Below are positions 7,472-51,937 of a stretch of DNA of 64,000 nt, piece by piece. Source of the stretch: Escherichia phage APCEc01; the sequence record NC_029091.1. One strand, written 5' to 3'. Below the pieces are notes generated by a model. That model made no database searches and was not told the DNA's origin. It worked only from the letters and a program-made list of their open reading frames with translations. The first letter of the stretch is position 1; the number at the start of each line of letters is the position of its first letter. Position numbers and translations under genes: made by a program.

Positions 7472-8149
7472 ATGAGCACTGATGTTATTATAGATTTTGA
7501 AACATTCGGCAATACATCAAAAGCGGCTGTTATTGACCTTGCGGTTATTGCATATAATTCCGACCCTGAAGTTGTTGAATCATTTGAAGAACTTGTTCAA
7601 CGAGGTAAGCGAATTAAATTTAATTTAGCTTCTCAGAAAGGGAAGCGAGTTTTCGCTAAATCCACTATGAAATGGTGGAAAGAACAATCGGCTGAAGCGC
7701 GTAAAAACTTGGCTCCGTCTGAAGACGATGTCACTACGCTTGAAGGCATTAAAATCTTTTTAGACTATTGCCGAGCTAATAAAGTTGACCAATGGAAATC
7801 ACAGATGTGGTGCCGTGGTATGAGCTTTGACTTCCCGATCTTGGTCGATTTGATTCGTGACCTCTATCGTGATGAAGGTGTTCTTGAACCAGAGATTGAT
7901 ACTGATAAATTAGAACCGGTTAAATTCTGGGCTCAACGTGATATTCGTACGGCAATCGAAGCTTACTCGTTGACACGAGGATTAAGTATGTGTCCATTAC
8001 CGATGGGTACGCTAAAAGGATTCGTTGCCCATGATAGTATTCATGATTGTGCTAAAGATATTTTGATGTTAAAATATGCTCAGCGTTATGCGCTTGGCCT
8101 TGAAGATGTCCCTGAGAATCCTGACCCGTTAAGTGTAAAACAGCGATAA
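7472..8149 (+). CDS. dexA: exonuclease A
   Basis: 225 aa; DEDD-type motif IIDFETFG; matches T4 DexA in size and position. Confidence 0.8.
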   Translation: MSTDVIIDFETFGNTSKAAVIDLAVIAYNSDPEVVESFEELVQRGKRIKFNLASQKGKRVFAKSTMKWWKEQSAEARKNLAPSEDDVTTLEGIKIFLDYCRANKVDQWKSQMWCRGMSFDFPILVDLIRDLYRDEGVLEPEIDTDKLEPVKFWAQRDIRTAIEAYSLTRGLSMCPLPMGTLKGFVAHDSIHDCAKDILMLKYAQRYALGLEDVPENPDPLSVKQR

Positions 8150-8154
8150 AACCA

Positions 8155-8184
8155 GTTTACAACCAAGGATGGTTGGAGTATAAT
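8155..8184 (+). promoter_or_regulatory. T4-type early promoter
   Basis: GTTTAC, 18-nt spacer, TATAAT. Confidence 0.6.
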
Positions 8185-8215
8185 CTTTCTATCTTAACCA
8201 AACAGGAAAAACATT

Positions 8216-8710
8216 ATGAATATCAATACTACGGCTACTTACATCCTGAAAGACGAAAAACAAATCAACTGGTACGGTGCTTCAGTGCGAGCTTATGAAA
8301 AGTTTTGTGAAATTTTAGGTGCCACTCAAGGTAATAGTTTCACTATTGTTAACTTCATCAAACAAGCTGAAGGCCCTTGGTTATTCTTAGAAATTAAAAA
8401 TTCACACGGTACAATTTCTACTACCGCCCTTCCAAGCACTGACTTTGAATTGTTGATTGAAGAAGTAGAACCCGTTAAAGACATCTGTATTGATATGGAT
8501 ATCGCTTGTATGTACGGTACTCTGATTAAGCCTATTGAGCCTACTGATTTGTTGTGTAAAGCTGTTTCAATTCGACGTCCGTTCGCAGGTCCAGTGAGTG
8601 GATGGGTAACTGATCAGTGGATTGAAGACGGTGTCGAACTTCTGAACGTTGTTCATGCAGGTGATTTTAGTGTAGTTCCACGTAGTGCTGTGGTTAATAT
8701 TCTAAATTAA
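8216..8710 (+). CDS. hypothetical protein, member A of a tandem paralog family
   Basis: 164 aa; C-terminal GWVTDQWIEDGVELLNVVHAGDFSVVP shared with the next two ORFs. Confidence 0.6.
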   Translation: MNINTTATYILKDEKQINWYGASVRAYEKFCEILGATQGNSFTIVNFIKQAEGPWLFLEIKNSHGTISTTALPSTDFELLIEEVEPVKDICIDMDIACMYGTLIKPIEPTDLLCKAVSIRRPFAGPVSGWVTDQWIEDGVELLNVVHAGDFSVVPRSAVVNILN

Positions 8711-8770
8711 TGTTGTACATCCAAGGATGGATGGAGTATAGTGAATTCAATTTAAACAAAGAGAGAAATT

Positions 8771-9235
8771 ATGATTACTATTGGTGAAATTAAGCGTGTA
8801 TCGACAGCGTCTCGTTCTAAAGCTGCAGGAAAGCTGGTTGAAGTAGTAGGACTTCGTACTAATGGCATGGGCCGTATTAAAGAAGTTAAAGTTCGAATCA
8901 TTCCTAGTTCTGGAAAAACTGAAACTCAGTTCGCCTATGTAAGTCCTAAATTCTTGGAAACTCGTGTAAGTGCCCACTTTGCTTCAAGCGATATCGTTGA
9001 GCCTACTACACAGTTCAAATGGGCCTTGTGTAAAGGTGTTGAATTCCAGACTGATAAAGAATTTGACTTCATCGATGAATACGGTTATCCAAGCAAAACT
9101 GATACTATGTGTGGCTTCATTAGCGACCAATGGGTTGAAGATGGTGAAAAGTTATACAATATCGTATTCTTAGGTGACTTCCGAGTTGTTAAAGAATCTG
9201 AAATCACTCGCTATGTGTCTCCTCGTAAAGCTTAA
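8771..9235 (+). CDS. hypothetical protein, member B of a tandem paralog family
   Basis: 154 aa; ASRSKAAGKLVEV, FKWALC and GFISDQWVEDGEKLYNIVFLGDF shared with member C. Confidence 0.6.
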   Translation: MITIGEIKRVSTASRSKAAGKLVEVVGLRTNGMGRIKEVKVRIIPSSGKTETQFAYVSPKFLETRVSAHFASSDIVEPTTQFKWALCKGVEFQTDKEFDFIDEYGYPSKTDTMCGFISDQWVEDGEKLYNIVFLGDFRVVKESEITRYVSPRKA

Positions 9236-9244
9236 GGAATTATT

Positions 9245-9664
9245 ATGAATATTGTAAATCTCTCTACAGGTGATTACGTATATGTATCTGTTGCTTCTCG
9301 CTCTAAAGTTGCCGGGAAGTTGGTTGAAGTTCTTTCTGTGAGTGATCCGGTTTTTGGACGTAACGAAGTTAAAGTTCGAGATGTTAATGGTAACATTGGT
9401 TACGTCTCAAGTCAGTTTATTGAACCAGAAGAAAAAGCGTTCAAATGGAAACTGTGCAGGTCAGTTTTAGTTGTAAAAGACCATGAATTTACTATTGCTG
9501 CCGCAACTGATGGGTCTCCATGGACAACGAATCAAGTCGCTGGTTTTATTTCAGACCAATGGGTTGAAGATGGTGTTAAGCTTTATAACATCGTTTTCGC
9601 CGGACAGTTCATGGTAGTTCCTGAATTCCAAATCAAAGGATATAGCCAAGCATCTTTTGCATAA
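9245..9664 (+). CDS. hypothetical protein, member C of a tandem paralog family
   Basis: 139 aa; ASRSKVAGKLVEV, FKWKLC and GFISDQWVEDGVKLYNIVFAGQF. Confidence 0.6.
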   Translation: MNIVNLSTGDYVYVSVASRSKVAGKLVEVLSVSDPVFGRNEVKVRDVNGNIGYVSSQFIEPEEKAFKWKLCRSVLVVKDHEFTIAAATDGSPWTTNQVAGFISDQWVEDGVKLYNIVFAGQFMVVPEFQIKGYSQASFA

Positions 9665-9723
9665 AGTAGTTTACTTCTCCTCCGGTTTTGATATTATAAC
9701 CATATCAACCAGAGGAGAATAAT

Positions 9724-10248
9724 ATGTTAGTTTACCGCGTAGAACGTAGTTTTTGTACTCAACGTGAATCATTACCAGGAATTGCTATCGAAGACGGTAA
9801 AGCCGTCAGAATTTGGGAAACCTCTTGGAATAAAGAACCTCGCTCGCCATACGGTTGGTCGGGCACCGACAACTCTGAAGAAACATGGGAGTTCCTTAAT
9901 AAGCATGGAATACTCTCAGGTAACTTCTACCATCACGGCGACAACTATAATGTCCCTAATCGTCCTACAGTAAATGAAGACAAACTCCTTGAACAAAATA
10001 TCTTAAGATACTATAGAATTGAGCACACATTTGAATTGAACGAAGATTGGGCTCAAGGGTTCTATTTTGGATTTGAAAGTGTTGACGCGGTTTATGCATG
10101 GTTTGATGACCAGGTGGATGTTGAACTCTTGAAAGCTAAAGGATACTACATCGCGGTCTATGAAGCACCTGATTTCATCCTCGGAAGTTGTCAATTAATG
10201 TTTAGACGTTCATTGGCAGAACAAGTTGATTTTATTTTGCTAAAATGA
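9724..10248 (+). CDS. hypothetical protein
   Basis: 174 aa; own early promoter and RBS GAGGAG. Confidence 0.55.
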   Translation: MLVYRVERSFCTQRESLPGIAIEDGKAVRIWETSWNKEPRSPYGWSGTDNSEETWEFLNKHGILSGNFYHHGDNYNVPNRPTVNEDKLLEQNILRYYRIEHTFELNEDWAQGFYFGFESVDAVYAWFDDQVDVELLKAKGYYIAVYEAPDFILGSCQLMFRRSLAEQVDFILLK

Positions 10249-10305
10249 TGTACAACAACTATGGTCTATGATACTATAGACCTATCAAAACAAGAGGAGA
10301 ATATT

Positions 10306-10533
10306 ATGAAACGTCAAATCATTAAAAACGTAACTACTGATTCAAACATCGATGAGTTTGAAGATGTTCTGTTTAATCCTGATTTAGTTGTTGTACAGAA
10401 AAACTGGACCGAATTTTTATGCTACACTGAAGTGGTTTACGTTTACGAAAAACTCGGTGATGAAATGCCTATCTATGGTATCTTCCGTGAAATCACTGAA
10501 AACGGTACAACTTATTGGAAGGAAACTTACTAA
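10306..10533 (+). CDS. hypothetical small protein
   Basis: 75 aa from ATG 10306 with RBS GAGGAG; the track ATG at 10261 lies inside the promoter. Confidence 0.5.
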
Positions 10534-10943
10534 TGGCTAATAAATTCCGCGTTAACTCATGGTACCAATTTAAAGATAAACGTGCCCAAGAAGAGTTTAT
10601 TAAAGACCATACTGATAATGGGATTTACGCACGACGTCTTGGCATGGAACCATTTAAAGTATTAGATGTTGACCATCTTGGGCGTCCTACTAAAATTGTG
10701 ACATCTACTGGCATGGTTGGATACGCAACAGGCGGTGATATTCTTGATGAAAACTTTATCTGGCTCTCTACTAGTGAAGCAGAGTTTTTTGATGAAGTGG
10801 GAAATCCATATCAAGCGTCCGAAGAGCAAGATTCTGGTGAACTTGACGAATTGTCTGAATTTCCGGTGATGACAATTACTATCGAAAATAACGACCAGGC
10901 ATGGTCTTTGTATCAAATGTTGAAAGCACATTTTAAGGAATAA
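10533..10943 (+). CDS. hypothetical protein
   Basis: 136 aa from ATG 10533 (track start 10515 is TTG); acidic C-terminus. Confidence 0.5.
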
Positions 10944-10945
10944 TA

Positions 10946-11125
10946 ATGCCGTTATACGACTATAAATGCCAATCTGAAGATTGCGGACATGAATATGAAA
11001 AAATTAAAAGGATTTCTGAACGAGAAAACGATGTTTGCCCTGAATGTCATCGTCTGTCTACTCGTCGGGTTTCTGCTCCTAAACATGTGAACGGTGGTTT
11101 TTACGACTTACTTAAGAAGGGTTAA
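10946..11125 (+). CDS. zinc-ribbon small protein (FmdB-like CxxC...CPxC)
   Basis: 59 aa MPLYDYKCQSEDCGHEYE...CPECH; below the track cut-off. Confidence 0.5.
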   Translation: MPLYDYKCQSEDCGHEYEKIKRISERENDVCPECHRLSTRRVSAPKHVNGGFYDLLKKG

Positions 11126-11127
11126 TT

Positions 11128-11553
11128 ATGGCTTTTAAAGGTTTTGAAGTTGGTAAGAAATATCGTATTATCAAAGGACAGGAAGATAATTTCTTGAGAA
11201 TTCTTAATACGACGGGTAAACATCTTAATACTAATCTGCATACTACTTTATTGTCCAAAGATTTTATTGTGGAAGAGATGATTGGTTATGGTGTTTCGGT
11301 TATTGCTGTAGAAGCCGTAGGCGATTATGGCCGAACTATTCATAGTATGCAAGGTGATATTCTGCTTTATGGTGCAGAATTTAAATTCTTTGAAGAAGTT
11401 CAGGAACCAGATACAGCTGTCGATTTCAAAAAAGGCTCTATAGAATTTGTTGATGGTTCGGTGATCGTATCAGGCGATGTGGTCATTACAGTTAAAAGTG
11501 AACAAGGGCGTTTGGCTGCAATTGATGCACTTCAGAAAATTAAATTTAAATAA
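11128..11553 (+). CDS. hypothetical protein (goF position)
   Basis: 141 aa immediately upstream of gene 39; size and position match T4 goF; no sequence confirmation. Confidence 0.4.
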   Translation: MAFKGFEVGKKYRIIKGQEDNFLRILNTTGKHLNTNLHTTLLSKDFIVEEMIGYGVSVIAVEAVGDYGRTIHSMQGDILLYGAEFKFFEEVQEPDTAVDFKKGSIEFVDGSVIVSGDVVITVKSEQGRLAAIDALQKIKFK

Positions 11554-11570
11554 GGGCTTCGGCCCTTTTT
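11554..11570 (+). terminator. rho-independent terminator
   Basis: GGGCTTCGGCCC hairpin plus TTTTT. Confidence 0.7.
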
Positions 11571-11594
11571 GCTTTAGATTTCGGATGATAGAAT
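11570..11594 (+). promoter_or_regulatory. MotA-dependent middle promoter candidate for gene 39
   Basis: Mot-box TGCTTTA, 12-nt spacer, TAGAAT; matches the T4 middle-promoter architecture. Confidence 0.5.
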
Positions 11595-11616
11595 ACCTTC
11601 ATAACGAGGAGACAAC

Positions 11617-13434
11617 ATGATTAAAAATGAAATTAAGGTATTGTCAGATGTAGAACATATTAAGAAACGTAGTGGTATGTATATTGGTTCTTCTGCTAAA
11701 GAAGCACATGAGCGTTTTTTGTTTGGTAAATATCAACAAGTTGAATATGTTCCTGGTCTGGTTAAATTAATCGATGAGATTATTGACAACTCGGTTGATG
11801 AAGCTATTCGTACATCATTTAAGTTTGCAAATAAAATTGATGTGCAAATTAAAAATAATCAAGTTTCGGTGGAAGATAACGGACGTGGTATTCCTCAAGG
11901 TTTAGTTACCGACCAAACAGGTGAACAAATTCCTGGGCCTGTAGCAGCCTGGACTATTCCAAAGGCTGGTGGTAACTTTGGTGATGACTCTGAACGCAAG
12001 ACTGGTGGTATGAACGGCGTCGGGAGTAGTTTAACTAATATCTTCTCTACGTTGTTTACAGGCATCACGTCAGATGGCGAAAATGAAATCACTGTTAACT
12101 GTTCAAACGGAATGGAAAACAAATCATGGTCTTCTAAGAAATCTAAAGGTAAAGGCACTAAAGTAATCTTCACTCCTGATTTCTCTTCATTTGAAGAGCA
12201 TAATTTATCTCAAATTTATTTAGATATTACTTTAGACCGACTTCAAACATTGGCAGTCGTTTATCCTGATATCAAGTTCACATTTAATGGTAAAAAGGTT
12301 GATGGTAATTTTAAACGATTTGCTAAACAATTTGGTGAAGATAACATCATTCAAGAAAATGATAAAGTCTCTATAGCATTCACAACATCACCAGATGGCT
12401 TCCGTCATTTAACTTATGTGAATAACATCCATACTAAAAATGGTGGTCATCATGTTGAATGTGTAATGGATGATATCTGCGAACATCTTTTGCCGGGTAT
12501 TAAAAAGAAATATAAGGGTATTGAAGTCACTAAAGCTCGTGTTAAAGAATGTCTCACAATGTTGATGTTTATTAGAGACATGAGCAACATGCGTTTTGAT
12601 TCTCAGACTAAAGAACGTTTAACGTCAACGTATGGTGATATTCGTAATCATATCCAATTAGATGCTAAGAAAATTGCTCAGGCACTTCTTAAAAACGAAG
12701 CCTTGATTATGCCTATTGTTGAAGCAGCATTAGCTCGTAAATTGGCAGCAGAAAAGGCTGCAGAAACTAAAGCAGCTAAAAAGGCAACTAAAGCTAAGGT
12801 TCATAAGCATATTAAAGCTAACCAATGTGGTAAAGATGCAGATACGACATTGTTTTTAACAGAAGGTGATTCGGCAATTGGTTATCTCATTGATGTTCGT
12901 GACCGTGAACTACACGGCGGATTCCCATTACGTGGTAAGGTGATGAATAGCTGGGGTATGTCATATGCTGATATGATGAAGAACAAAGAGCTCTTTGATA
13001 TCTGTGCTATCACGGGTCTTATTCTTGGTGAAAAGGCAGAGAATACGAACTATCGTAATATTGCAATTATGACCGATGCCGATCATGACGGTCTTGGAAG
13101 TATCTATCCGGCTTTGCTTGCTTTCTTTAGTAATTGGCCTGAATTGTTTGAACAAGGACGTATTCGCTTTGTTAAAACACCTGTAATTATTGCACAAATT
13201 GGCAAAGCTCAAAAATGGTTTTATACTGTAGCTGAGTATGAAGAAGTTAAAGATACACTGCCTAAGCATAGTATTCGATACATCAAGGGATTAGGCTCCC
13301 TTGAAAAGTCAGAATATCGTGAAATGATTCAGAACCCTGTGTACGACGTAGTTAAACTTCCTGAAAATTGGAAAGAACTCTTTGAAATGTTGATGGGTGA
13401 TGATTCAGAACTTCGTAAAGAATGGATGTCCTAA
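11617..13434 (+). CDS. 39: DNA topoisomerase II large subunit (GyrB-like ATPase), unsplit 39/60
   Basis: 605 aa; IIDNSVDEA GHKL motif; one continuous ORF covering what T4 splits into genes 39 and 60. Confidence 0.9.
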   Translation: MIKNEIKVLSDVEHIKKRSGMYIGSSAKEAHERFLFGKYQQVEYVPGLVKLIDEIIDNSVDEAIRTSFKFANKIDVQIKNNQVSVEDNGRGIPQGLVTDQTGEQIPGPVAAWTIPKAGGNFGDDSERKTGGMNGVGSSLTNIFSTLFTGITSDGENEITVNCSNGMENKSWSSKKSKGKGTKVIFTPDFSSFEEHNLSQIYLDITLDRLQTLAVVYPDIKFTFNGKKVDGNFKRFAKQFGEDNIIQENDKVSIAFTTSPDGFRHLTYVNNIHTKNGGHHVECVMDDICEHLLPGIKKKYKGIEVTKARVKECLTMLMFIRDMSNMRFDSQTKERLTSTYGDIRNHIQLDAKKIAQALLKNEALIMPIVEAALARKLAAEKAAETKAAKKATKAKVHKHIKANQCGKDADTTLFLTEGDSAIGYLIDVRDRELHGGFPLRGKVMNSWGMSYADMMKNKELFDICAITGLILGEKAENTNYRNIAIMTDADHDGLGSIYPALLAFFSNWPELFEQGRIRFVKTPVIIAQIGKAQKWFYTVAEYEEVKDTLPKHSIRYIKGLGSLEKSEYREMIQNPVYDVVKLPENWKELFEMLMGDDSELRKEWMS

Positions 13435-13449
13435 GCTCCTTCGGGAGCT
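13434..13449 (+). terminator. hairpin after gene 39
   Basis: AGCTCCTTCGGGAGCT hairpin followed by a U-rich tract. Confidence 0.5.
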
Positions 13450-13476
13450 TCATTTTAATTTTAATAAGGCTTAATT

Positions 13477-14577
13477 ATGAAAGTTATGTTTATCCCATCT
13501 CGTGCAGTCCCATTTAACCCAGAACGTGTACAAGGTGGTCTTGAAGCAGTACATTTAAATGTGTTGAAATATCTTGTGTCCATCGGTGCCGATATTGATT
13601 ATATTGGTTTTGATAATGACACATTTGGTGATTGGAAAGTTAATCATCATCCTGTTGGTCATCTGACTAAATTCAGTCTAGGTATGAGTTATACTATGGC
13701 TCGTAAGATTGTTGAACTAGCCGGCATCCATGAATACGATTTTGTTGTTACTATGGAACCGACTAAACTAACCGTTCAGGCAATTAAAGACGCAGGTCTC
13801 TCTAAAGTTCATAAGAATTTTATGGCAACACCATTTGAACCGGTATCTCGTGGCATTGTTCAAATTTGGGACCAGACTATTCAAATTCATAAGAATGGTG
13901 GTAAGAGTTATGCTCCTACTAAAGCCTTCCGTGAATTTGAACGTAAATATTGTTATATGACTTCAGGTCTGACTGACAAAATTGATTATGATTATTGGCG
14001 AGCAAATCCTTTGTTTGAAGCCGAAGATTATCCGGTTATTTGTTTGACTGAAAAGCCAGAAGTTCTTCCGGCGACGGATCTGATTATTAGTGCACAACGT
14101 TATGACACTAAAATGCGTCGTACTGATGTTGCTCTTGAAGCGATTAAAGCACTAGGCGAAAATGGTGCAGGATACTGTCCAAGCAAATGGGCGCCACCGG
14201 CTAAATATCCTGTTATTATTGATGCTCCACACAGTGAAATTATGGAACGTCTTAAAACAGCTAAAGCACTTATTAATACGTGTCCTGACACAGGTACGGT
14301 AGAGAATAGTTCTATTGAAGCCATCTCTAAAGGTGTCCCTGTAATCCAGTTAGTTTTTAAGGATTATCCTCATGCGACATTTGAATACGACCCAGATACT
14401 GTGCGTGTAGAAATTGATTCCTCTACTCCTAAGAAAGAAGTAGTTGCGCTTTACACAAAAGCTGTATTAGAATTCACTGACACATACGAAGCTCGAGTTA
14501 AACGTGCTGAAGCAGTATGGAAGAAGTATAACCGAGATGCAGTTGTTGCGATGTGGGATAAAATCTTCACAGCGTAA
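13477..14577 (+). CDS. putative glycosyltransferase (GT-B-like), candidate DNA hmC sugar transferase
   Basis: 366 aa; GT4-like N-terminus MKVMFIPS...GGLEAV; C-terminal ENSSIEAISKGVPVIQ resembles the GT-B donor-binding EAMAxGxPVV motif; lies between gene 39 and rIIA.1. Confidence 0.5.
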   Translation: MKVMFIPSRAVPFNPERVQGGLEAVHLNVLKYLVSIGADIDYIGFDNDTFGDWKVNHHPVGHLTKFSLGMSYTMARKIVELAGIHEYDFVVTMEPTKLTVQAIKDAGLSKVHKNFMATPFEPVSRGIVQIWDQTIQIHKNGGKSYAPTKAFREFERKYCYMTSGLTDKIDYDYWRANPLFEAEDYPVICLTEKPEVLPATDLIISAQRYDTKMRRTDVALEAIKALGENGAGYCPSKWAPPAKYPVIIDAPHSEIMERLKTAKALINTCPDTGTVENSSIEAISKGVPVIQLVFKDYPHATFEYDPDTVRVEIDSSTPKKEVVALYTKAVLEFTDTYEARVKRAEAVWKKYNRDAVVAMWDKIFTA

Positions 14578-14669
14578 ATCCTGAATAGCCTGAGGCACTA
14601 TTACACATAAGATGATAGATTATATGGTCTTTAGTAATAGTGCCCTAGGAATCTACTGAAGAGAATATT

Positions 14670-14870
14670 ATGAGAACATATAACGTGGACTTGGAACTTT
14701 TTGATAAAGCAGTGCTCCGGGAATTCCGGCTTATCCAAAGATTTTTTGATATCGAATCAGCAGAGTCCTTTAAAGAACGCTTTAAAGAAATTCGATATAA
14801 AATACAAACCGATACAGCTACTAAAGAAGAACTTCTTGAAGTAGCAGAAATTTTTAAACGTAACTTGTGA
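14670..14870 (+). CDS. rIIA.1-like small protein
   Basis: 66 aa immediately upstream of rIIA. Confidence 0.5.
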   Translation: MRTYNVDLELFDKAVLREFRLIQRFFDIESAESFKERFKEIRYKIQTDTATKEELLEVAEIFKRNL

Positions 14871-14882
14871 TGAGAGAAAAAT

Positions 14883-17096
14883 ATGATTATTGAAACGGCT
14901 AAAGAAACGATTATTGGTTCAGGCGGTAAGAGCACAGCATTCACTATTCAAGGCAATAGCAAAGTTTATAAGATTTTGTCTAATGACCTTTATACAAACA
15001 AAGAATTGGCTTGTGTACGTGAATTAATCACAAACTGTATCGATGGACAAATTCTTAATGGTTGCACTGATAAGTTTATTGTTCAGGCTCCAGGTCGTTT
15101 AGACCCACGTTTTGTAGTTCGAGACTTTGGTCCTGGTATGAGTGATTTCACCATTCGAGGTAATGACGAAGAGCCAGGAATCTATAACTCATATTTTGCT
15201 TCAACTAAAACATCGAGTAACGATTTCATTGGTGGATTCGGACTCGGCTCTAAAGCTCCATTAGCATATACCGATACGTTTAACCTTACGTCTTATCACA
15301 ACGGTGAAGTTCGTGGTTACGTAATCTACCAAGATGACACGGGTCCACAGATTAAGCCAACCTTCGTAGATAAGATGGGTCCTGATGACCGTACGGGTGT
15401 AGAAGTAGTTGTACCGGTTAACCCGGAAGATTTTGAAAAGTTCGCATCCGAAATTGCTTATGTTATGCGTCCTCTAGGTGATATTGCAGAAGTTCGTGGT
15501 GTTAAAGATATTAAATACTTTCCTGAATTTGATGATGTGTATTTGGCCAAGGAAGCTCCATGGGGTGAACGTGGTAATATCATGGCTGTTTATGGTGGTA
15601 TTGTATATCCAATCGGAAGTGTTATTAAAGAACAAACATGGATGATGACGCGATGCACTACAGCTTATATTAAATTCCCTATGGGTGAACTAGATGTAGC
15701 CCCGTCTCGTGAAGCATTGTCATTTGATAAACGTACAGTAGCAAATATCCATAAACGCGTTGCAGAAATCGATGCTAAATTGTTCGCTGAAGATTCTAAG
15801 AAATGGATTGATTGTAAATACCCACGTCATGTGTTCCGTGAAATTGATTCTCTTGGCTATACCGCTCGTAAATACATGGAAAAGGCTGGGTCTAATATTG
15901 AATCACTGAAATACTCTAAAGAACAACTAACTTATTCCGAGTTGTACAAACGTTTTAAAATGGGACCCGAATGGTGCAACCTTGGTGTTGTATATGATAT
16001 CGTTTCAGACCCACGACTTCGTCGTATTCGTGAAAGTGGTAGCTCATCGGCAACTATTTCAATTAACAGTCTGATTGGTATTAACATTAAAAACGTTGAA
16101 ATTGTTATTGACGACGTTAAGGGACGCGTTCCATTAATGCGAGCTCTTAATTCAATTGAAATGACTAAAGACGAGGTTAAATTAACCGGTAAAGTTCCAC
16201 GCGGTTTTGGTAAAAGCGTACTATTCGTTGACCCTACAGACGAAGATGCAATGAAACTTCTGGAACGCCTTAAAGTTATCTTTGATGGCGACAACATTAA
16301 CATGTACAAGACTTCAGAGCTTTTACAAATCGTTAAGCCATGGATTGAAGTCAAGACTCGTTCTAATGGGCCTCGTCCTAAATCCCCAAGTGCTCATCGG
16401 TTCTTTAAGAATGAAAACGATGTTTGGGTATCAGAAGATCTCTTTATTCCGGCAAGTGAAGCAGATGAAATCCAAGGTTATGCTATAGTTCGTAATCGTT
16501 CTAATGCTGAATGTCTTGACGCAGATAAAGGTTGGTTGAACTATGACTCCAATTTCTTGACCCGTATTGCTGATTTGTCAGGTATTAAAGAGTTCACTGT
16601 AGTCCGTCCACAGATTGCTAAGAAAGTTCGTAAACTTGGTGAAGTAGAATGCTTGTTCGAAAAATCAATTAACGACTATATTACGCTAATCGATAAAGTA
16701 GATTATGATGAGTATGTATCACCAAGTCGTAGAGCACAGCCCTATCTAAACCATATTACTCGTAACGAAGAGCTTAACTTCCTTAGTAAGTATTTTAGCT
16801 CTAAGAACAAAGAAATCAGTAAAGACTTTGCAAAACTCTCCACAGTAAATAATCGCTGGGGATGGAATCGATTCGCAGGTGCTACTAATACAGACCTGAA
16901 TAAGAAGTTAGAATTGTGTGCTAAAATTTTCGATAAGCTTAAAGATAATGCTTACGATAATGATGATAAAATGGTTATTGAATTCGAAACCAATTATCAT
17001 ATTGTGACAGAATACATGGGACGACGTGGTACTCTTTCCAAAGAACAGGTCGCTCAAATCGTTAAATTCATGAAGGCCGTGGAAGCGGCCAAATAA
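14883..17096 (+). CDS. rIIA: rIIA protein
   Basis: 737 aa; size and position match T4 rIIA (725 aa). Confidence 0.85.
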   Translation: MIIETAKETIIGSGGKSTAFTIQGNSKVYKILSNDLYTNKELACVRELITNCIDGQILNGCTDKFIVQAPGRLDPRFVVRDFGPGMSDFTIRGNDEEPGIYNSYFASTKTSSNDFIGGFGLGSKAPLAYTDTFNLTSYHNGEVRGYVIYQDDTGPQIKPTFVDKMGPDDRTGVEVVVPVNPEDFEKFASEIAYVMRPLGDIAEVRGVKDIKYFPEFDDVYLAKEAPWGERGNIMAVYGGIVYPIGSVIKEQTWMMTRCTTAYIKFPMGELDVAPSREALSFDKRTVANIHKRVAEIDAKLFAEDSKKWIDCKYPRHVFREIDSLGYTARKYMEKAGSNIESLKYSKEQLTYSELYKRFKMGPEWCNLGVVYDIVSDPRLRRIRESGSSSATISINSLIGINIKNVEIVIDDVKGRVPLMRALNSIEMTKDEVKLTGKVPRGFGKSVLFVDPTDEDAMKLLERLKVIFDGDNINMYKTSELLQIVKPWIEVKTRSNGPRPKSPSAHRFFKNENDVWVSEDLFIPASEADEIQGYAIVRNRSNAECLDADKGWLNYDSNFLTRIADLSGIKEFTVVRPQIAKKVRKLGEVECLFEKSINDYITLIDKVDYDEYVSPSRRAQPYLNHITRNEELNFLSKYFSSKNKEISKDFAKLSTVNNRWGWNRFAGATNTDLNKKLELCAKIFDKLKDNAYDNDDKMVIEFETNYHIVTEYMGRRGTLSKEQVAQIVKFMKAVEAAK

Positions 17097-17105
17097 GGAA
17101 ACATT

Positions 17106-18053
17106 ATGTACAATATCAAATGCTTGTCCCAAGAAGAACAGTTAGAAGCTTACGGCCTGGTTGAATCAGGCAAATGGACTCGTAAAGAAATTGCCGATTA
17201 CTTCGACATTTCAACAGATACTCTTCGTAAGATTGTTAAGAATTTTAAAGCAGAAGGCGTTGCCCCTGAAGCAAACGATGCCTCTTATGTAATCGAAGAA
17301 GTTCCAGAAAATGATGAACCTATTATCGGCGGACATCGTCCTGAAATCGTATGGAACGCGTCATCTAAATTTATTTCAATTATTGAAGGACGCGTAGCAT
17401 ACAATGCGACTCCATCAAGTCATGCAAATTTTGAAGAAATTAAAGCTAATCTGGTCGCAGGAAACCTTAGTAAAGCTGTCGAACTTATTAACATCAAGAA
17501 AGCTATTACTAAGTTTGTTGATGGTAATGTTACTATTGAAGGTGGTAGTTTATTTTATCAAGGTATAGAGATTCGTTCAGGGCTGGTTAACCGTATTATT
17601 GATTCTATGGAAAAAGGTGAAGACTTTAAATTCTATCTGCCATTCCTTGAAAACCTGTTAGAAAACCCAAGCGAAAAAGCTGTACAACGTTTATTCGACT
17701 TCTTGGTTGCAAACGATATTGAAATCACTGAAGATGGTCATTTCTATGCGTGGAAAGTAGTTCGTAAGGACTATTTAGACTGCTATAGTGGTACATTTGA
17801 TAACTCCCCAGGTAAAGTTGTTTCAATGCCTCGTACTCGAGTTAACGACGATGATACTCAAACCTGTTCTCGCGGTCTCCATGTTTGTGCTAAATCTTAT
17901 ATTCGCCACTTTGGTTCAAGCTCAGATAAAGTTGTGAAAGTTAAAGTTCATCCACGTGATGTTGTATCCATCCCAGTTGACTATGGTGATGCTAAGATGC
18001 GTACTTGTCGTTACGAAGTAATTTCAGACGTTACTGAATTATTTGCAGAATAA
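17106..18053 (+). CDS. rIIB: rIIB protein
   Basis: 315 aa directly after rIIA; matches T4 rIIB (312 aa). Confidence 0.85.
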   Translation: MYNIKCLSQEEQLEAYGLVESGKWTRKEIADYFDISTDTLRKIVKNFKAEGVAPEANDASYVIEEVPENDEPIIGGHRPEIVWNASSKFISIIEGRVAYNATPSSHANFEEIKANLVAGNLSKAVELINIKKAITKFVDGNVTIEGGSLFYQGIEIRSGLVNRIIDSMEKGEDFKFYLPFLENLLENPSEKAVQRLFDFLVANDIEITEDGHFYAWKVVRKDYLDCYSGTFDNSPGKVVSMPRTRVNDDDTQTCSRGLHVCAKSYIRHFGSSSDKVVKVKVHPRDVVSIPVDYGDAKMRTCRYEVISDVTELFAE

Positions 18054-18058
18054 TAATT

Positions 18059-18082
18059 GGGGACTTCGGTCCCCTTTTTTTC
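18059..18082 (+). terminator. rho-independent terminator after rIIB
   Basis: GGGGACTTCGGTCCCC plus T-run. Confidence 0.75.
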
Positions 18083-18095
18083 TTTAGGGGTAAAC

Positions 18096-18383
18096 ATGAT
18101 TCATCCATTTGACGTATCAGAATCCAAAATCGCTAATCTTCGTGGCCATCATAAATGTAAATCAGTGTATTGCGCTAAATTGGTAAAACACCCGGGCGAT
18201 GCACACTACGGCTGGTTAGAATGCGACGAAGTTGTTATTGAAATTCCGCCGGTAGATGCAGAATATCTTGAAGAAGGTGACCGCATTTATTTTGGCGAAC
18301 TACACATCAGAGGTATCTATGGTAAAGACGAACTTGGGACTGTTGAGGCTGAAGAGTCTTCCGACATTTATCCTGTCGAATGA
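18096..18383 (+). CDS. hypothetical Cys-rich small protein
   Basis: 95 aa from ATG 18096 (track start 18057 is TTG, inside the terminator); HHKCKSVYC...CDE. Confidence 0.45.
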   Translation: MIHPFDVSESKIANLRGHHKCKSVYCAKLVKHPGDAHYGWLECDEVVIEIPPVDAEYLEEGDRIYFGELHIRGIYGKDELGTVEAEESSDIYPVE

Positions 18384-18876
18384 GTTTTTGACTAGCGAAA
18401 TGAAAGTGAAGATTGCTGACACCGCTCGGTATTCCCTGAGCCAAAATCCAGACCAAAACAAAGAAGATGTAGTTCGACGTTGTAAGGTTGCAGTCTTTGC
18501 AGAGTATGTAGTAGCAAATTGGCTAGACGGATATGTTAATAAAGGTATTGAAGATGTAGAAGACCCGTACACGTATGCATGGGACGTGTTAGCCCATCCC
18601 AAATATTGTGGAATTCGTGTAGAAGTCAAGACACATCAGATGGATTCTAAATGGATTTCTGTTACCACAGGATACAGTGGTGATTATCCGGGTGGTAATG
18701 GAATCAATATAGGGCCCTTCTTGAATCATCGAGTCGCAGATTGTATTATTATATTAGATGTCAAAGAAACCTCACCTGACGTCTTCTCTTATTCTATAAA
18801 GTTCGTGGGAGACCATGAAGACCTAAAGAAAATCGTCCGCAAGAGCAACTACAACGGGTGGTATCTTCATCTTTAA
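18319..18876 (+). CDS. PD-(D/E)xK-like nuclease, candidate endonuclease IV (denB)
   Basis: 185 aa from ATG 18319 with SD AGAGGT (alternative ATG 18400 gives 158 aa); WDVL...GIRVEVK resembles a PD-(D/E)xK core; position after rIIB as T4 denB. Confidence 0.4.
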   Translation: MVKTNLGLLRLKSLPTFILSNEFLTSEMKVKIADTARYSLSQNPDQNKEDVVRRCKVAVFAEYVVANWLDGYVNKGIEDVEDPYTYAWDVLAHPKYCGIRVEVKTHQMDSKWISVTTGYSGDYPGGNGINIGPFLNHRVADCIIILDVKETSPDVFSYSIKFVGDHEDLKKIVRKSNYNGWYLHL

Positions 18877-18888
18877 TTTCATAAAAGT

Positions 18889-18918
18889 GTTTACAACTAA
18901 GTAGGACTATGATATAGT
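18889..18918 (+). promoter_or_regulatory. T4-type early promoter with inverted repeat over the -10
   Basis: GTTTAC ... TATAGT; inverted repeat TAGGACTA / TAGTCCTA flanks the -10. Confidence 0.6.
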
Positions 18919-18944
18919 AGTCCTATCTAAAAGAGGATAACATC

Positions 18945-19208
18945 ATGAAATTTAAATTTTTCTACGCAAAACATAAAGTAACAGGCGAATTTGTTTCAAT
19001 GTACAACACTGCAGATGACGAAGGGATGATTTATACCCATTTGGGACTATCTCATTGGGACTCGGACATGCCTTATATGTCATCTGAAGCCGAAATAACT
19101 CGTTTAGTTAACGGACATATGAACGACCATTTTGGTGTTATTCTTTCTAAAGACCTTAAAGAGGTTATCAACAAAGGATATATGGAACTAGCGGAAGTTG
19201 AGATATGA
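18945..19208 (+). CDS. hypothetical protein
   Basis: 87 aa; RBS AAGAGGA. Confidence 0.55.
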   Translation: MKFKFFYAKHKVTGEFVSMYNTADDEGMIYTHLGLSHWDSDMPYMSSEAEITRLVNGHMNDHFGVILSKDLKEVINKGYMELAEVEI

Positions 19209-47823: not shown

Positions 47824-47852
47824 TTTACAAACTCTCGGGAGCAGAGTATAAT
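47823..47852 (+). promoter_or_regulatory. T4-type early promoter with inverted repeat over the -10
   Basis: GTTTAC ... TATAAT; inverted repeat GGGAGCA / TGCTCC; close copy of the ndd promoter cassette. Confidence 0.6.
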
Positions 47853-47880: not shown

Positions 47881-48179
47881 ATGAAAACATTACTAGAGAA
47901 TTACATCAAACGGTCTGATGAGTATATTGATATCTGCCGTGGAATGACACTTGTAGATTATGACAAAGATGCAGCAAAGGCACTAGATGAAGCAGGTAAA
48001 GCTCTTCGTAAAGCTGCTAAAGAAAAAGGGTTGGATTTGCAACAACTCAAAAGTCATATGATTAAATTTATTTCTTCAAACGTTAGAAGTACGTCAATTA
48101 ATAAAAACGTTGCTGAAATTAATAAAGACCGGCGCGAACTCAACATTCGTATTCTTGAAGCTTTCTTAGGAATCAAATA

Positions 48180-48180: not shown

Positions 48181-49266
<1,086 letters not shown>

Positions 49267-49267
<1 letters not shown>

Positions 49268-49946: not shown

Positions 49947-50006
49947 TGGTTTACAACATGGTGGAGTTGTGATACTATAACTCTACCAACAAATGAGGAA
50001 ATAGAA

Positions 50007-50243
50007 ATGCTAAGTGAAAACCCAATTACAGTACACGAATTTCAGATTAAAGTAAAAGAATTTGCTCAAGCACTCATCAATAAAGTGTCTGAACGTTTCC
50101 AAGATGCAACATTACGAGTTATTCAAGAATCTCCACGTTCTTTTCTCATAATCGTTAATCCTAAAGATGGTGACCAAATTACTAATCTTAAATTAGGCAG
50201 TGATGGTCTTGTTGAAGCAACTCGAGTATATGGAACACTATAA
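50007..50243 (+). CDS. hypothetical protein
   Basis: 78 aa; own early promoter. Confidence 0.5.
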   Translation: MLSENPITVHEFQIKVKEFAQALINKVSERFQDATLRVIQESPRSFLIIVNPKDGDQITNLKLGSDGLVEATRVYGTL

Positions 50244-50363
50244 TGAGAGCTATCTCATTACTATCGAGAATGGTCATAAATCTGAGCACTACCAACTTAG
50301 CCTGTCTAATCCGGTTAAAGGTATTGTTGAATCAGAATCTGTTTATATCTCCTAAGGATTGTT

Positions 50364-51356
50364 ATGTTACCTGTCGTCGGAAAACTTATTTCTCCAAAAG
50401 AACTGGCTGAGATTATTCCTTTGTCGGAAGCTTACGCGTCACAAGTGGTTTCTCATCGCGAACAAGTTAATTCGATTATGAACGGTGAAGACCCACGCAA
50501 ACTTATTGTTGTAGGTCCTTGTTCAATTCATGACCCTATTGCTGCTGTTGAATACGGCAAACGTCTGGCTGAACTTCAAACTCGTCTTCCTAATGTTCTG
50601 TTAGTGATGCGCGTTTATTTTGAAAAGCCTCGAACTACCGTAGGTTGGAAAGGTCTTGTAAATGATCCATATCTTGACGGAAGTTTTGATATGAACCACG
50701 GTCTTATAGTTGCACGAACATTGTGTCGTAAACTTCTACGTATGGGACTTCCATTAGCAACTGAAGTATTAGACCCATTCACGATTAAGTATCTTTCTGG
50801 TATTTTCTCATGGGTTGCTATTGGCGCCCGTACGACTGAAAGTCAGACACATCGTGAAATTGCTTCAGGTCTACCGATGTGCGTAGGCTTCAAGAACGCA
50901 ACCAATGGTTCTATTAAAGTAGCTACAGACGCGATGTATAGTGCCGCCTGGCCTCATCGGTATATGGGTATGGACGTCGATGGTACTGTAGGCATTGTTG
51001 AAGCTGAAGGTAATCAGAATACGCATATCGTATTGCGTGGTGGGACCAACGGTCCGAACTATCATTCTTCTGATATTCAAGAAGCTTCTAACAAAGCAAG
51101 GGCAGTAGGTCTGAATCATTATGTAATGGTTGACTGTAGCCATGCAAACGCTGATGGGCATTATAGCAATCAAATTGGTATTGGTAAAAATTTAGCAGCT
51201 AATGATTTGGTCAAAGGAATTATGATAGAATCGTTCCTACATGAAGGAAATCAAAAAATTTCTGATAATATGTCCTATGGCGTTTCCGTTACCGATGCGT
51301 GCATCAGTTGGGAACAAACTAAAGAGCTGTTAACTTATATTAATAAGGTTCAATAA
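50364..51356 (+). CDS. 3-deoxy-D-arabino-heptulosonate-7-phosphate (DAHP) synthase, class I (AroG/AroF/AroH-like)
   Basis: 330 aa; GPCSIHD, YFEKPRTTVGWKGL, GARTTESQ.HRE.ASGL, CSHAN, HEGNQ and TDACI.WE align with E. coli AroG, including the metal-ligand Cys/His/Glu/Asp positions. Confidence 0.85.
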   Translation: MLPVVGKLISPKELAEIIPLSEAYASQVVSHREQVNSIMNGEDPRKLIVVGPCSIHDPIAAVEYGKRLAELQTRLPNVLLVMRVYFEKPRTTVGWKGLVNDPYLDGSFDMNHGLIVARTLCRKLLRMGLPLATEVLDPFTIKYLSGIFSWVAIGARTTESQTHREIASGLPMCVGFKNATNGSIKVATDAMYSAAWPHRYMGMDVDGTVGIVEAEGNQNTHIVLRGGTNGPNYHSSDIQEASNKARAVGLNHYVMVDCSHANADGHYSNQIGIGKNLAANDLVKGIMIESFLHEGNQKISDNMSYGVSVTDACISWEQTKELLTYINKVQ

Positions 51357-51937
51357 TGAAAGCTAGCACATACCTTCAGATTGCATATCTGATTTCTCAA
51401 GAATCAAAATGTTGTTCATGGAAAGTTGGCGCCGTCATTGAAAAAGATGGACGCATTATTTCTACAGGTTATAATGGCTCTCCTTCAGGTGGTACAAACT
51501 GTTGCGAACATGCATCCGAAAACGGTTGGTTGAAGAATAAACCAAGCCCGGTCATCGTTGCTGGTCATAAAGAAGGCACTACAGCATTTGGACGGGCAGA
51601 TAATTTTGTTTTGGCTAAAGAACATCGGGCCGCTCATAGTGCATGGTCTGCTAATAACGAAATCCATGCTGAATTGAATGCCATTTTGTTTGCTGCTCGC
51701 AAAGGTAATTCTATTGAAGGTGCTACGTTGTATACGACACTTTCTCCGTGTCCTGATTGCACTAAAGCTATTACACAGTCAGGTATTAAAAAGGTTGTAT
51801 ATGCAGAATTATATGACCGATCTCCTGAAAATTGGGCAGACATTCTTAAACAAGCTGGTATTGAAGTAATTCAGTACTCTCGTAATAATCTTCGTTCTCT
51901 GAATTGGGAACAAATTCGAAACTTTTGTGGTGAATAA
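51356..51937 (+). CDS. cd: dCMP deaminase
   Basis: 193 aa; zinc motifs HAELNAI and SPCPDC; near-colinear with T4 Cd. Confidence 0.95.
   Translation: MKASTYLQIAYLISQESKCCSWKVGAVIEKDGRIISTGYNGSPSGGTNCCEHASENGWLKNKPSPVIVAGHKEGTTAFGRADNFVLAKEHRAAHSAWSANNEIHAELNAILFAARKGNSIEGATLYTTLSPCPDCTKAITQSGIKKVVYAELYDRSPENWADILKQAGIEVIQYSRNNLRSLNWEQIRNFCGE

Follow-up and report, generated by a model that had tools for sequence, protein, structure and literature searches.

The DAHP synthase gene of phage APCEc01

The present analysis concerns an open reading frame (ORF) of Escherichia phage APCEc01 (sequence record NC_029091.1), from which a stretch of 64,000 nucleotides, here called the window, was examined. 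The ORF, at 50364..51356 on the + strand, encodes a protein of 330 aa which, based on its Pfam, NCBIfam and PDB matches and on its residues, is almost certainly a type I-alpha DAHP synthase (3-deoxy-7-phosphoheptulonate synthase). Its start codon is the first ATG past an upstream in-frame stop, and the short N-terminus of the protein is therefore real. The protein matches Pfam DAHP_synth_1 (PF00793; E=5e-75, 252 bits, cut-off 25.5), NCBIfam TIGR00034 aroFGH over its full length (427 bits, cut-off 173) and NF009395 (454 bits, cut-off 343), and stays under the cut-offs of the equivalog models of both AroG (NF006723, 363 bits, cut-off 568) and AroH (NF009396, 386 bits, cut-off 463). The closest solved structure is that of E. 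coli AroF (6agm, E=2e-104), with AroG (1gg1) at E=1e-90, and in the alignment the phage enzyme shares 51% of its residues with AroF, 47% with AroG and 43% with AroH. It further resembles the Tyr-sensitive AroF in having Gly at AroG position 211. Bacterial homologues of the phage clade reach at most 55% identity, and all of them comprise at least 341 aa; judged from these sequences, the clade is without a close bacterial donor.

The original prediction, made from the letters of the window, had stated that the ORF aligns with AroG along its length and looks catalytically competent, and the family scores and the intact catalytic residues bear this out. The residues were compared in an alignment of 30 phage-clade and 98 bacterial sequences, with positions given in AroG numbering unless they belong to the phage protein. 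The motifs GPCSIHD, CSHAN, TDAC and KPRTTVGWKGL are all present and fall on the AroG metal ligands C61, H268 and D326 and on the KPRT loop, so that the motifs do not prove misaligned in a real alignment. The one exception is HEGNQ, whose Glu had been proposed as a ligand as well: the ligand is E289 of the sequence MIES, five residues earlier. Thus, the metal ligands of the phage protein are C53, H260, E289 and D311, equivalent to AroG Cys61, His268, Glu302 and Asp326, and they are invariant in all of these sequences. Similarly, the residues binding phosphoenolpyruvate (PEP) and erythrose-4-phosphate (E4P), namely R92, K97, P98, R99, T100, R165, K186 and R234, are all kept in the phage protein. 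All 12 catalytic and substrate residues are invariant across the phage and bacterial sequences, apart from T100, which is Ser in 3 bacteria. Compared with E. coli AroF, AroG and AroH, the enzyme is alignable over its full length and identical in its metal, PEP and E4P residues, whereas it is virus-encoded and 20-26 residues shorter, lacks the N-terminal lid residues, and has Gln151, Ser180 and Pro150 replaced throughout the clade. By its sequence it is a full-length, AroF/AroG-type and apparently competent enzyme.

Loss of the feedback-inhibitor site

For the present comparison, the inhibitor site was taken as the N-terminal residues 6, 7 and 10 together with P150, Q151 and S180 (PMC9529685). 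Gln151, which is Gln in all 98 bacteria, is replaced by Lys or Arg in all 30 phage-clade sequences; Ser180 (97 of 98 bacteria) is Pro in 30 of 30, Pro150 (91 of 98) is Ile in 29 of 30, and Phe209 (97 of 98) is Tyr in 30 of 30. Residues 6-7 are present in the bacteria and deleted in every one of the 30 phage-clade sequences, which have 48-52 residues ahead of Cys61 as compared with at least 58 in bacteria. The window protein itself has lost residues 6-7 and carries Ile in place of P150, Lys in place of Q151 and Pro in place of S180. The inhibitor is bound through its main chain by Q151 and S180, and the mutants P150L and S180F resist feedback (PMC9529685); therefore, the substitutions strongly suggest a loss of feedback, and we regard it as quite probable that the phage DAHP synthase no longer responds to inhibition by aromatic amino acids. 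The suggestion that an N-terminus about 8 residues shorter than that of AroG might deregulate the enzyme is in line with these data: the difference is 8 residues by alignment and represents one of several clade-wide changes that strip away inhibitor-contacting residues. The altered positions are identical to those of engineered feedback-resistant AroG and AroF variants (P150L, S180F, changes of Q151), and resistance would be the expected phenotype. In contrast to the engineered variants, the phage changes are natural, occur together with the N-terminal deletion and are fixed in six or more phage genera. Metabolic engineering could draw on the phage gene as a natural source of a DAHP synthase predicted to resist feedback. 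Within Mosigvirus, the genus of the window's phage, dN/dS of the gene amounts to 0.37-0.41, a value based on just 9-12 differences.

Co-occurrence with a phage U32 protein

The gene that keeps company with the DAHP synthase gene across T4-like phages encodes a U32 protein of 386-389 aa. It resides between the genes for DNA polymerase and UvsX, inside the module for arabinosyl-5-hydroxycytosine, and is represented by gp50 of RB69 and, outside the window, by the gene at 158400-159560 of Escherichia phage vB_EcoM_SCS57 (Mosigvirus, OM960734.1), where its neighbour is the gene for the thymidylate-synthase-like 5-hydroxy-dCMP synthase, which depends on O2 and flavin. Bases 1-64000 of SCS57 have the same coding-sequence coordinates as the window, and the DAHP synthase is annotated there as 'hypothetical protein'. 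The SCS57 U32 protein is 99.5% identical to RB69 gp50 and, by way of an identical IMG/VR copy (L026), matches the profile of the phage U32 subfamily with an E value of 6e-195. The family assignment rests on Pfam: Peptidase_U32 is matched by RB69 gp50 (42 bits) and F48 gp095, at 42-45 bits (cut-off 22.4), and likewise above the cut-off by TH2_068 of Thanatos. Ten Cys residues, including a C-terminal CX4CX3CX2C motif, are invariant in the phage subfamily. In profile comparisons with hhalign, RlhA scored best of the three E. coli paralogues (E 7e-5 over 204 columns; UbiU 8e-3), and direct comparison of hidden Markov models with RlhA, UbiU and UbiV gave marginal local matches only.

By tblastn, the U32 gene was found in 220 records and the DAHP synthase gene in 211, and the counts per host label, which are numbers of records regardless of kinship among the phages, nearly coincide: 135 and 123 for Escherichia, 26 and 25 for Klebsiella, 14 and 12 for Shigella, 7 and 6 for Serratia, 7 and 7 for Proteus, 4 and 4 for Enterobacter, and 3 and 3 for Edwardsiella; Yersinia has 6 records with U32 and is not among the labels listed for the DAHP synthase. 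No T4-like carrier of the DAHP synthase without U32 was found among the matches listed, and U32 accompanies the phage-clade DAHP synthase on all eight long T4-like IMG/VR contigs that have the latter. With some 60 kb between the two genes, physical linkage does not explain their co-occurrence.

In five of the genera sampled and in a Shewanella phage, the ORF directly following U32 encodes a chorismate mutase; matches to Pfam CM_2 above the cut-off were observed for Marfavirus F48, Kanagawavirus Entb_45, Winklervirus X20, Bragavirus phiP4-3 and Shewanella phage Thanatos-2. This chorismate mutase occurs in 51 phage records (tblastn), in all 51 beside a thymidylate-synthase-like gene and, wherever inspected, next to U32. 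Among the carriers are Serratia phages LC53 and 92A1, whose DNA has been reported to contain arabinosyl-5-hydroxycytosine (PMC13326640). In the Mosigviruses, a 79-aa ORF (L013 19558-19797 in SCS57; ORF049c in RB69) fills the slot of the chorismate mutase of other genera and is unrelated to it. It was considered as a diverged chorismate mutase and rejected (BLASTP E 8.1, no Pfam match, hhalign probability 0.1%). Mosigviruses must accordingly rely on host PheA/TyrA for the chorismate mutase step.

Independent associations of DAHP synthases with U32

The phage U32 subfamily has a large metagenomic sister clade with 37-58% identity. On viral contigs unrelated to T4, these U32 genes are located in deoxynucleotide and sugar-nucleotide modules together with genes for a glycosyltransferase, an isomerase, an AfhE-like protein, a dTMP-kinase-like protein and a dCMP deaminase. 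No thymidylate-synthase-like hydroxylase was detected within 10 kb of the divergent U32 genes at phmmer E<=1e-5, with one weak match (4e-5) in contig L042. At 12 or more metagenomic loci, the gene adjoining U32 encodes a type I-beta DAHP synthase or a fusion of DAHP synthase with chorismate mutase. The former comprises 248 aa in L023 and L040 and is longer in L074; the fusion is found in L051, L052, L054, L055 and L081, four of which were confirmed by Pfam. In four further contigs with a fusion (L166, L167, L169 and L170), U32 is located within about 650 nt in 4 of 4, accompanied by the isomerase and AfhE-like genes, and L057 has a lone chorismate mutase gene immediately beside U32. Conversely, among 15 viral loci with an I-beta DAHP synthase, seven have U32 adjacent and an eighth has it elsewhere on the contig. 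The closest named homologues of the fusions, at 44-46% identity, belong to Bacteroidota, and the phage fusions share the architecture of the type I-beta enzymes of Bacteroidota and Firmicutes, i.e. DAHP_synth_1 followed by a C-terminal CM_2. They are of a different subtype than the I-alpha enzyme of the window and bear on the present case only in that they became associated with U32 independently, by convergence.

The most extensive arrangement resides on L170 (ENA ERZ28633460, TONG22-1 scaffold_16, 114,718 bp), a contig with a Terminase_6N match. Its cluster at 7909-19132 encodes, in this order, AroB, U32, the DAHP synthase-chorismate mutase fusion, a glycosyltransferase, a dTMP-kinase-like protein, an isomerase, an AfhE-like protein, AroK, a type II dehydroquinase (AroQ), AroA, AroC and AroE. 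By homology, this appears to be a complete virus-borne shikimate pathway of seven enzymes plus chorismate mutase, arranged around U32. As judged from these sequences, non-orthologous DAHP synthases, I-alpha in the T4-like phages and I-beta elsewhere, have repeatedly joined U32, together with chorismate mutase, and the common denominator is prephenate.

These lineages bear on other functions that might be assigned to the phage enzyme. The original prediction considered a co-option for a sugar-phosphate reaction related to DNA modification. Such an aldolase would join PEP with arabinose-5-phosphate or another sugar phosphate in the manner of KDO8P synthase and thereby provide a DNA-modifying sugar. 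DAHP and KDO8P synthases share a fold, a phage isomerase makes arabinose-5-phosphate, and E. coli DAHP synthase accepts five-carbon phosphosugars, if poorly. However, no KDO8P synthase model is among the profile matches of the 330-aa protein, whereas DAHP synthase models are; its loop is KPRT and not of the KANRS type, and neither in this E4P loop nor at any substrate-binding position does the protein differ from the bacterial DAHP synthases. The I-beta phage enzymes likewise side with DAHP synthases (for L023, E 2e-49 on the enzyme of P. furiosus versus about 1e-9 on KDO8P synthases), and their fusion to chorismate mutase makes sense only for the shikimate route; therefore, a co-option for arabinose-5-phosphate is not favoured. 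In addition, the DNA of RB69 and DLP3 carries arabinose on 5-hydroxycytosine (PMC13326640). Altogether, we regard a new aldolase specificity as extremely improbable.

T-even phages depend on folate, and the gene is part of a nucleotide-metabolism operon, next to cd. The enzyme might thus supply another product of chorismate, such as p-aminobenzoate (pABA) and folate for dTMP synthesis, or quinones. Against this, the chorismate mutase of the relatives commits chorismate to prephenate and away from pABA and isochorismate, the viral pathway of L170 goes no further than chorismate mutase and has neither pab nor ubi nor men genes in its vicinity, and T4 is a heavy user of folate, yet has no DAHP synthase. 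A supply of folate or quinones is, accordingly, improbable.

Genome papers have read the phage enzyme as a generic auxiliary function that boosts Phe, Tyr and Trp for the synthesis of phage proteins (PMC11845039, PMC8022965) and would be unrelated to DNA modification. The enzyme is intact and probably deregulated, which would fit such a role, and the phenylpyruvate proposed as a by-product of U32 reactions (PMC10990095) could feed Phe. What an amino-acid boost leaves unexplained is the confinement of the gene to U32-bearing T4-like phages, its absence from several hundred records sharing the region, and the presence of non-orthologous DAHP synthases and chorismate mutase beside U32 within deoxynucleotide and sugar-nucleotide modules. 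Moreover, the phage DAHP synthase and chorismate mutase are unaccompanied by genes for prephenate dehydratase, prephenate dehydrogenase or an aminotransferase. We therefore consider this explanation unlikely, although it has the better claim among those weighed so far.

Other arrangements of U32 genes were observed in further contigs. In the 466-kb, megaphage-sized contig L022 (JGI 3300081836; 9447-11086), a dCMP deaminase gene overlaps the start of U32 by 4 nt, an echo of the overlap between the DAHP synthase gene and cd in the window, and the neighbours comprise genes for a PolIII-alpha polymerase, dTMP kinase, UDG and a radical SAM protein. L024/L025 (10001-16360) have two U32 paralogues together with NT5C, deoxynucleoside kinase, nucleoside 2-deoxyribosyltransferase and radical SAM/SPASM genes, beside a dockerin/GH43 protein that suggests a Clostridia-like host; these contigs may represent a different U32-based modification of nucleosides.

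Relation to DNA arabinosylation

The window's phage carries the whole module of the arabinosyl-5-hydroxycytosine pathway as described for RB69, HY126 and DLP3 (PMC13326640), that is, the isomerase, the AfhE-like protein, the HAD protein, the thymidylate-synthase-like hydroxylase and glycosyltransferases. The published scheme differs from the one considered here in that hydroxylation occurs by the O2/flavin hydroxylase only, and prephenate, chorismate mutase, DAHP synthase and the U32 family go unmentioned (PMC13326640). One of the glycosyltransferase genes, located between gp39 and rIIA at 13477..14577 on the + strand, was identified by its ORF, its position equivalent to that of RB69 gp3 and its tblastn distribution; RB69p003 is listed as arabinosyltransferase 2 (PMC13326640, Table 1). 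A co-occurrence of this gene with the DAHP synthase across T4-like phages, which had been put forward as a check, was observed inside Mosigvirus only. Homologues are present in Mosigvirus and in about 55 Acinetobacter phages, the latter without a phage-borne DAHP synthase, and none was detected by tblastn in the DAHP synthase carriers of Klebsiella, Serratia and Proteus. Accordingly, the glycosyltransferase was rejected as partner: its sequence and distribution place it in this DNA-modification pathway, without making it the gene that the DAHP synthase co-occurs with. The predicted link to DNA modification thus holds by way of the U32 gene and chorismate mutase, and not by way of this glycosyltransferase or another sugar phosphate.

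A similar mismatch applies to the arabinose-5-phosphate isomerase, which is encoded by 57 Acinetobacter phages whose genomes are without DAHP synthase and is absent from the Marfaviruses, which have the DAHP synthase. In Klebsiella phage F48 (L012 39741-45408), the module consists of the AfhE-like, HAD, U32, chorismate mutase, thymidylate-synthase-like and glycosyltransferase genes, without isomerase, and Marfavirus presumably relies on host KdsD/GutQ for arabinose-5-phosphate. Four DAHP synthase matches do carry an Acinetobacter label, at about 48% identity; the one inspected sits on its own contig of 13 kb within a metagenome assembly. In the roughly 55-57 Acinetobacter phages with arabinosyltransferase and isomerase, no U32 was found by tblastn. 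From the Acinetobacter and Marfavirus mismatch it follows that arabinosylation itself is not the correlate of the DAHP synthase, and isomerase or pentose-phosphate flux was rejected as the main link.

The same distribution speaks to the idea that the enzyme acts as a valve for carbon flux, draining E4P and PEP and thereby pulling the non-oxidative pentose-phosphate pathway towards ribulose-5-phosphate for arabinose and nucleotides. In line with a flux valve, the DNA of all T4-like carriers is arabinosylated, or predicted to be, with ribulose-5-phosphate as the source (PMC13326640). However, the arabinosylating Acinetobacter phages manage with isomerase and transferase and without a DAHP synthase on the phage genome, and Marfaviruses carry the DAHP synthase but encode no isomerase. 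E4P is, furthermore, an intermediate of the pathway, so that draining it wastes carbon, and neither the chorismate mutase nor the full shikimate pathway beside U32 would be accounted for. A role as flux valve is thus very improbable.

A putative prephenate-dependent route to 5-hydroxycytosine

Precedents for a role of prephenate are provided by other members of the U32 family. Formation of 5-hydroxycytidine in 23S rRNA requires RlhA as well as prephenate and Fe-S clusters (PMC5727448), and TrhP, a U32 protein depending on prephenate, and TrhO, which uses O2, constitute dual routes to 5-hydroxyuridine in tRNA (PMC6599085). In the UbiU/V-dependent anaerobic hydroxylation, prephenate serves as the oxygen-atom donor, which has been proposed for U32 proteins generally; in the same work, 18O fed as C4-[18O]-shikimate was shown to reach ubiquinone (PMC10990095). 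The oxygen introduced by the phage 5-hydroxy-dCMP synthase, a thymidylate-synthase-like flavin enzyme, stems from O2, and the U32 protein RB69p050 is listed as 'sugar or heterocycle reductase' (PMC13326640). The phage system resembles those of RlhA (ho5C2501), TrhP/TrhO (ho5U34) and UbiU/V with UbiI/H/F in having a U32 Fe-S protein with conserved Cys residues, a pyrimidine C5 as the likely target, an O2/flavin enzyme paired to it for the same product, and a dependence on the aro pathway, as suggested by the company the gene keeps. It differs in being viral, in acting, as proposed, on DNA or one of its precursors, and in having genes of its own for the supply of prephenate, namely those for DAHP synthase and chorismate mutase and, in one phage, for the whole shikimate pathway.

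Thus, it might be hypothesized that the deregulated DAHP synthase, by converting PEP and E4P to DAHP, would push carbon into the shikimate pathway of the host regardless of an ample supply of Phe, Tyr and Trp, and that a higher flux would yield more chorismate and, in turn, more prephenate. Prephenate would then act as stoichiometric oxygen donor for the phage U32 Fe-S enzyme, an O2-independent alternative for the C5-hydroxylation of cytosine, most likely at the level of dCMP. Such a route would be needed in the anoxic gut, where the O2-dependent 5-hydroxy-dCMP synthase would fail. We consider it reasonably likely that the deregulated DAHP synthase boosts prephenate for anaerobic cytosine C5-hydroxylation by the phage U32 protein. 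Towards the wider notion that many phages possess a second, O2-independent and prephenate-using U32 route to 5-hydroxycytosine DNA, fuelled by their own shikimate genes, we lean only slightly. In both, we infer feedback insensitivity, the use of prephenate by U32, cytosine as substrate and the anaerobic role.

The demand on such a route would be considerable. The G+C content of the window, 37.9%, corresponds to about 64,000 cytosines per genome, and a burst of 100-200 amounts to a calculated 6-13 million hydroxylations per cell. By our own estimate from textbook cell composition, this equals about a tenth or more of the aromatic amino acids of the cell. The demand would fall within a single latent period, in settings where feedback inhibition and repression act on the DAHP synthases of the host, and a feedback-blind phage enzyme would remove this bottleneck.

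Enterobacterales and Shewanella are facultative anaerobes, whereas Acinetobacter and Stenotrophomonas are strict aerobes. Phages of the former two have both the O2 enzyme and U32, and Acinetobacter phages have the O2 enzyme only, as does Stenotrophomonas phage DLP3 according to the published gene table (PMC13326640). The divergent phages with U32 only probably infect anaerobes. This pattern of hosts fits an anaerobic role for U32.

Several points weigh against the proposed role of prephenate. RB69 and about five further Mosigviruses, as well as Tegunavirus TG1 and Mosugukvirus PM2, have U32 without a DAHP synthase, and the DAHP synthase would therefore be an accessory booster and not a requirement. 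The co-occurrence in T4-like phages may trace back to few ancestral events, and in Mosigvirus, the genus of the window's phage, no recognisable chorismate mutase gene lies next to U32. By sequence, the phage U32 subfamily is distant from RlhA, TrhP and UbiU/V, and for no U32 protein has direct hydroxylase activity been shown in vitro (PMC10990095). Finally, the hosts of the divergent U32 contigs are themselves inferred.

If the proposed prephenate route is real, DNA or deoxynucleotide metabolism would have its first hydroxylation that depends on prephenate, and viral shikimate genes their first functional rationale. The route would provide a job for an orphan auxiliary gene and for RB69 gp50, extend the recently discovered oxygen chemistry of prephenate from RNA and ubiquinone to DNA precursors, and account for the ability of gut T-even phages to replace cytosine when their host is without oxygen. 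Oxygen and the aro genes of the host would then act as hidden determinants of phage success, which is relevant to phage therapy with Mosigvirus, Marfavirus and Kanagawavirus.

Distribution and previous annotation

The original prediction had called the gene unexpected in a T-even nucleotide-metabolism operon, which does not hold if taken to mean unknown: many of the 211 homologues are annotated as aroF, DAHP synthase or phospho-2-dehydro-3-deoxyheptonate aldolase, and the gene appears in genome papers. In Mosigvirus, the gene has been counted among the auxiliary genes without known function (bioRxiv 10.1101/2020.01.19.911818); it has also been described as ORF64 of phiC120 (PMC8022965) and, in Kanagawavirus, as a gene for aromatic amino acids (PMC11845039). 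The phage DAHP synthase is thus already known and annotated as a gene. In the accessible literature, we found no biochemical study of a phage DAHP synthase and, by full-text search, no prior link between prephenate, U32 and phage; the dismantled allosteric site, the co-occurrence with U32, and the independent lineages with DAHP synthase, chorismate mutase and U32 appear to be new.

More distant homologues were also encountered. Aeromonas phage HJ05 (L010 3899-5546), a 79-kb phage unrelated to T4, encodes a type I-alpha DAHP synthase of 387 aa with 38% identity; no U32 was found within 4 kb, and the neighbouring genes encode a methyltransferase and an Acb2/Tad1-like (hairpin anti-defence-like) protein. 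Its role may be different from that of the T4-like enzyme. Other matches outside the T4-like phages were on unverified faecal contigs that carry no annotation. Dozens of IMG/VR contigs from giant-virus metagenome-assembled genomes (GVMAG; L098-L165) contain putative viral I-alpha DAHP synthase homologues with 41-49% identity.

Genomic context and expression

In the window, a Shine-Dalgarno-like AAGGA (50354..50358, + strand) is located 5 nt ahead of the ATG of the DAHP synthase gene, and its stop codon TAA (51354-51356) overlaps the ATG of cd (51356-51358) in the sequence TAATG (51354..51358, +), with an AAGG 9-12 nt upstream of the latter ATG. The stop/start overlap with the dCMP deaminase gene had been noticed before and is evident from the sequence; the two genes would, by this arrangement, be translationally coupled. 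In Kanagawavirus CIP9 and Marfavirus F48, both genes abut (0 and 2 nt apart), and in X20, EcS1 and PM2 there is no overlap and one or two small ORFs lie between the DAHP synthase slot and cd. Coupling is thus not universal, as small ORFs intervene in three of six genera.

The downstream gene cd (51356..51937, +) encodes a dCMP deaminase of 193 aa (Pfam dCMP_cyt_deam_1, E=1.6e-26) that is annotated in SCS57. Upstream, the gene is preceded by a homologue of cd.2 (DUF7320; 50007..50243, +), identified by Pfam and by the annotation of RB69 and T4, and the slot is anchored by pseT (48368..49267, +), which encodes a polynucleotide kinase/phosphatase (Pfam HAD_PNKP and AAA_33) and is syntenic in six genera. 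Accordingly, the order pseT ... cd.2, DAHP synthase, ... cd, gp31 is common to Mosigvirus, Kanagawavirus, Winklervirus, Marfavirus, Bragavirus and Kagamiyamavirus, and the region pseT-cd-31 of the window is 99% identical to that of Shigella phage JK45. That T4 holds only small cd.x ORFs at this position is consistent with its annotation, which has cd.1 between cd.2 and cd.

Alignment to the cd.2/cd junction of RB69 delimits a segment of 1113 bp (50240..51359, +) between two copies of ATAATGA at 50240-50246 and 51353-51359. The segment contains an ORF of 41-51 aa and the DAHP synthase gene and is absent from the RB69-type Mosigviruses; the repeat keeps a stop/start overlap with or without it. 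The uninterrupted cd.2/cd junction was found in 11 records, representing about six phages, and the Mosigviruses without DAHP synthase are RB69, mar005P1, JK36, JK42, moha and ECO111 5-P.

T4 has an early promoter, Pe133.3, in the gap between cd.3 and cd.2 (misc_feature). The corresponding gap of the window contains, as revealed by a scan, a sigma-70-like site (TTTACA-17-TACTAT with an upstream TG; 49950..49978, +), which by its synteny with Pe133.3 is a candidate early promoter for cd.2, the DAHP synthase gene and cd. The DAHP synthase gene is thus probably part of an early pseT-cd transcription unit. Overall, the scan of the region for promoters and terminators returned no more sites than expected from shuffled sequence. 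The best sigma-70-like site of the region (TTTACA-17-TATAAT, 11/12) lies at 47824-47852, just upstream of an ORF at 47881. As annotated, cd of RB69 stops early, at 169 aa (...ADILKPSWY*, L001 9743-10252), whereas the proteins of T4 and of the window have 193 aa; a frameshift or a sequencing error could be the cause.

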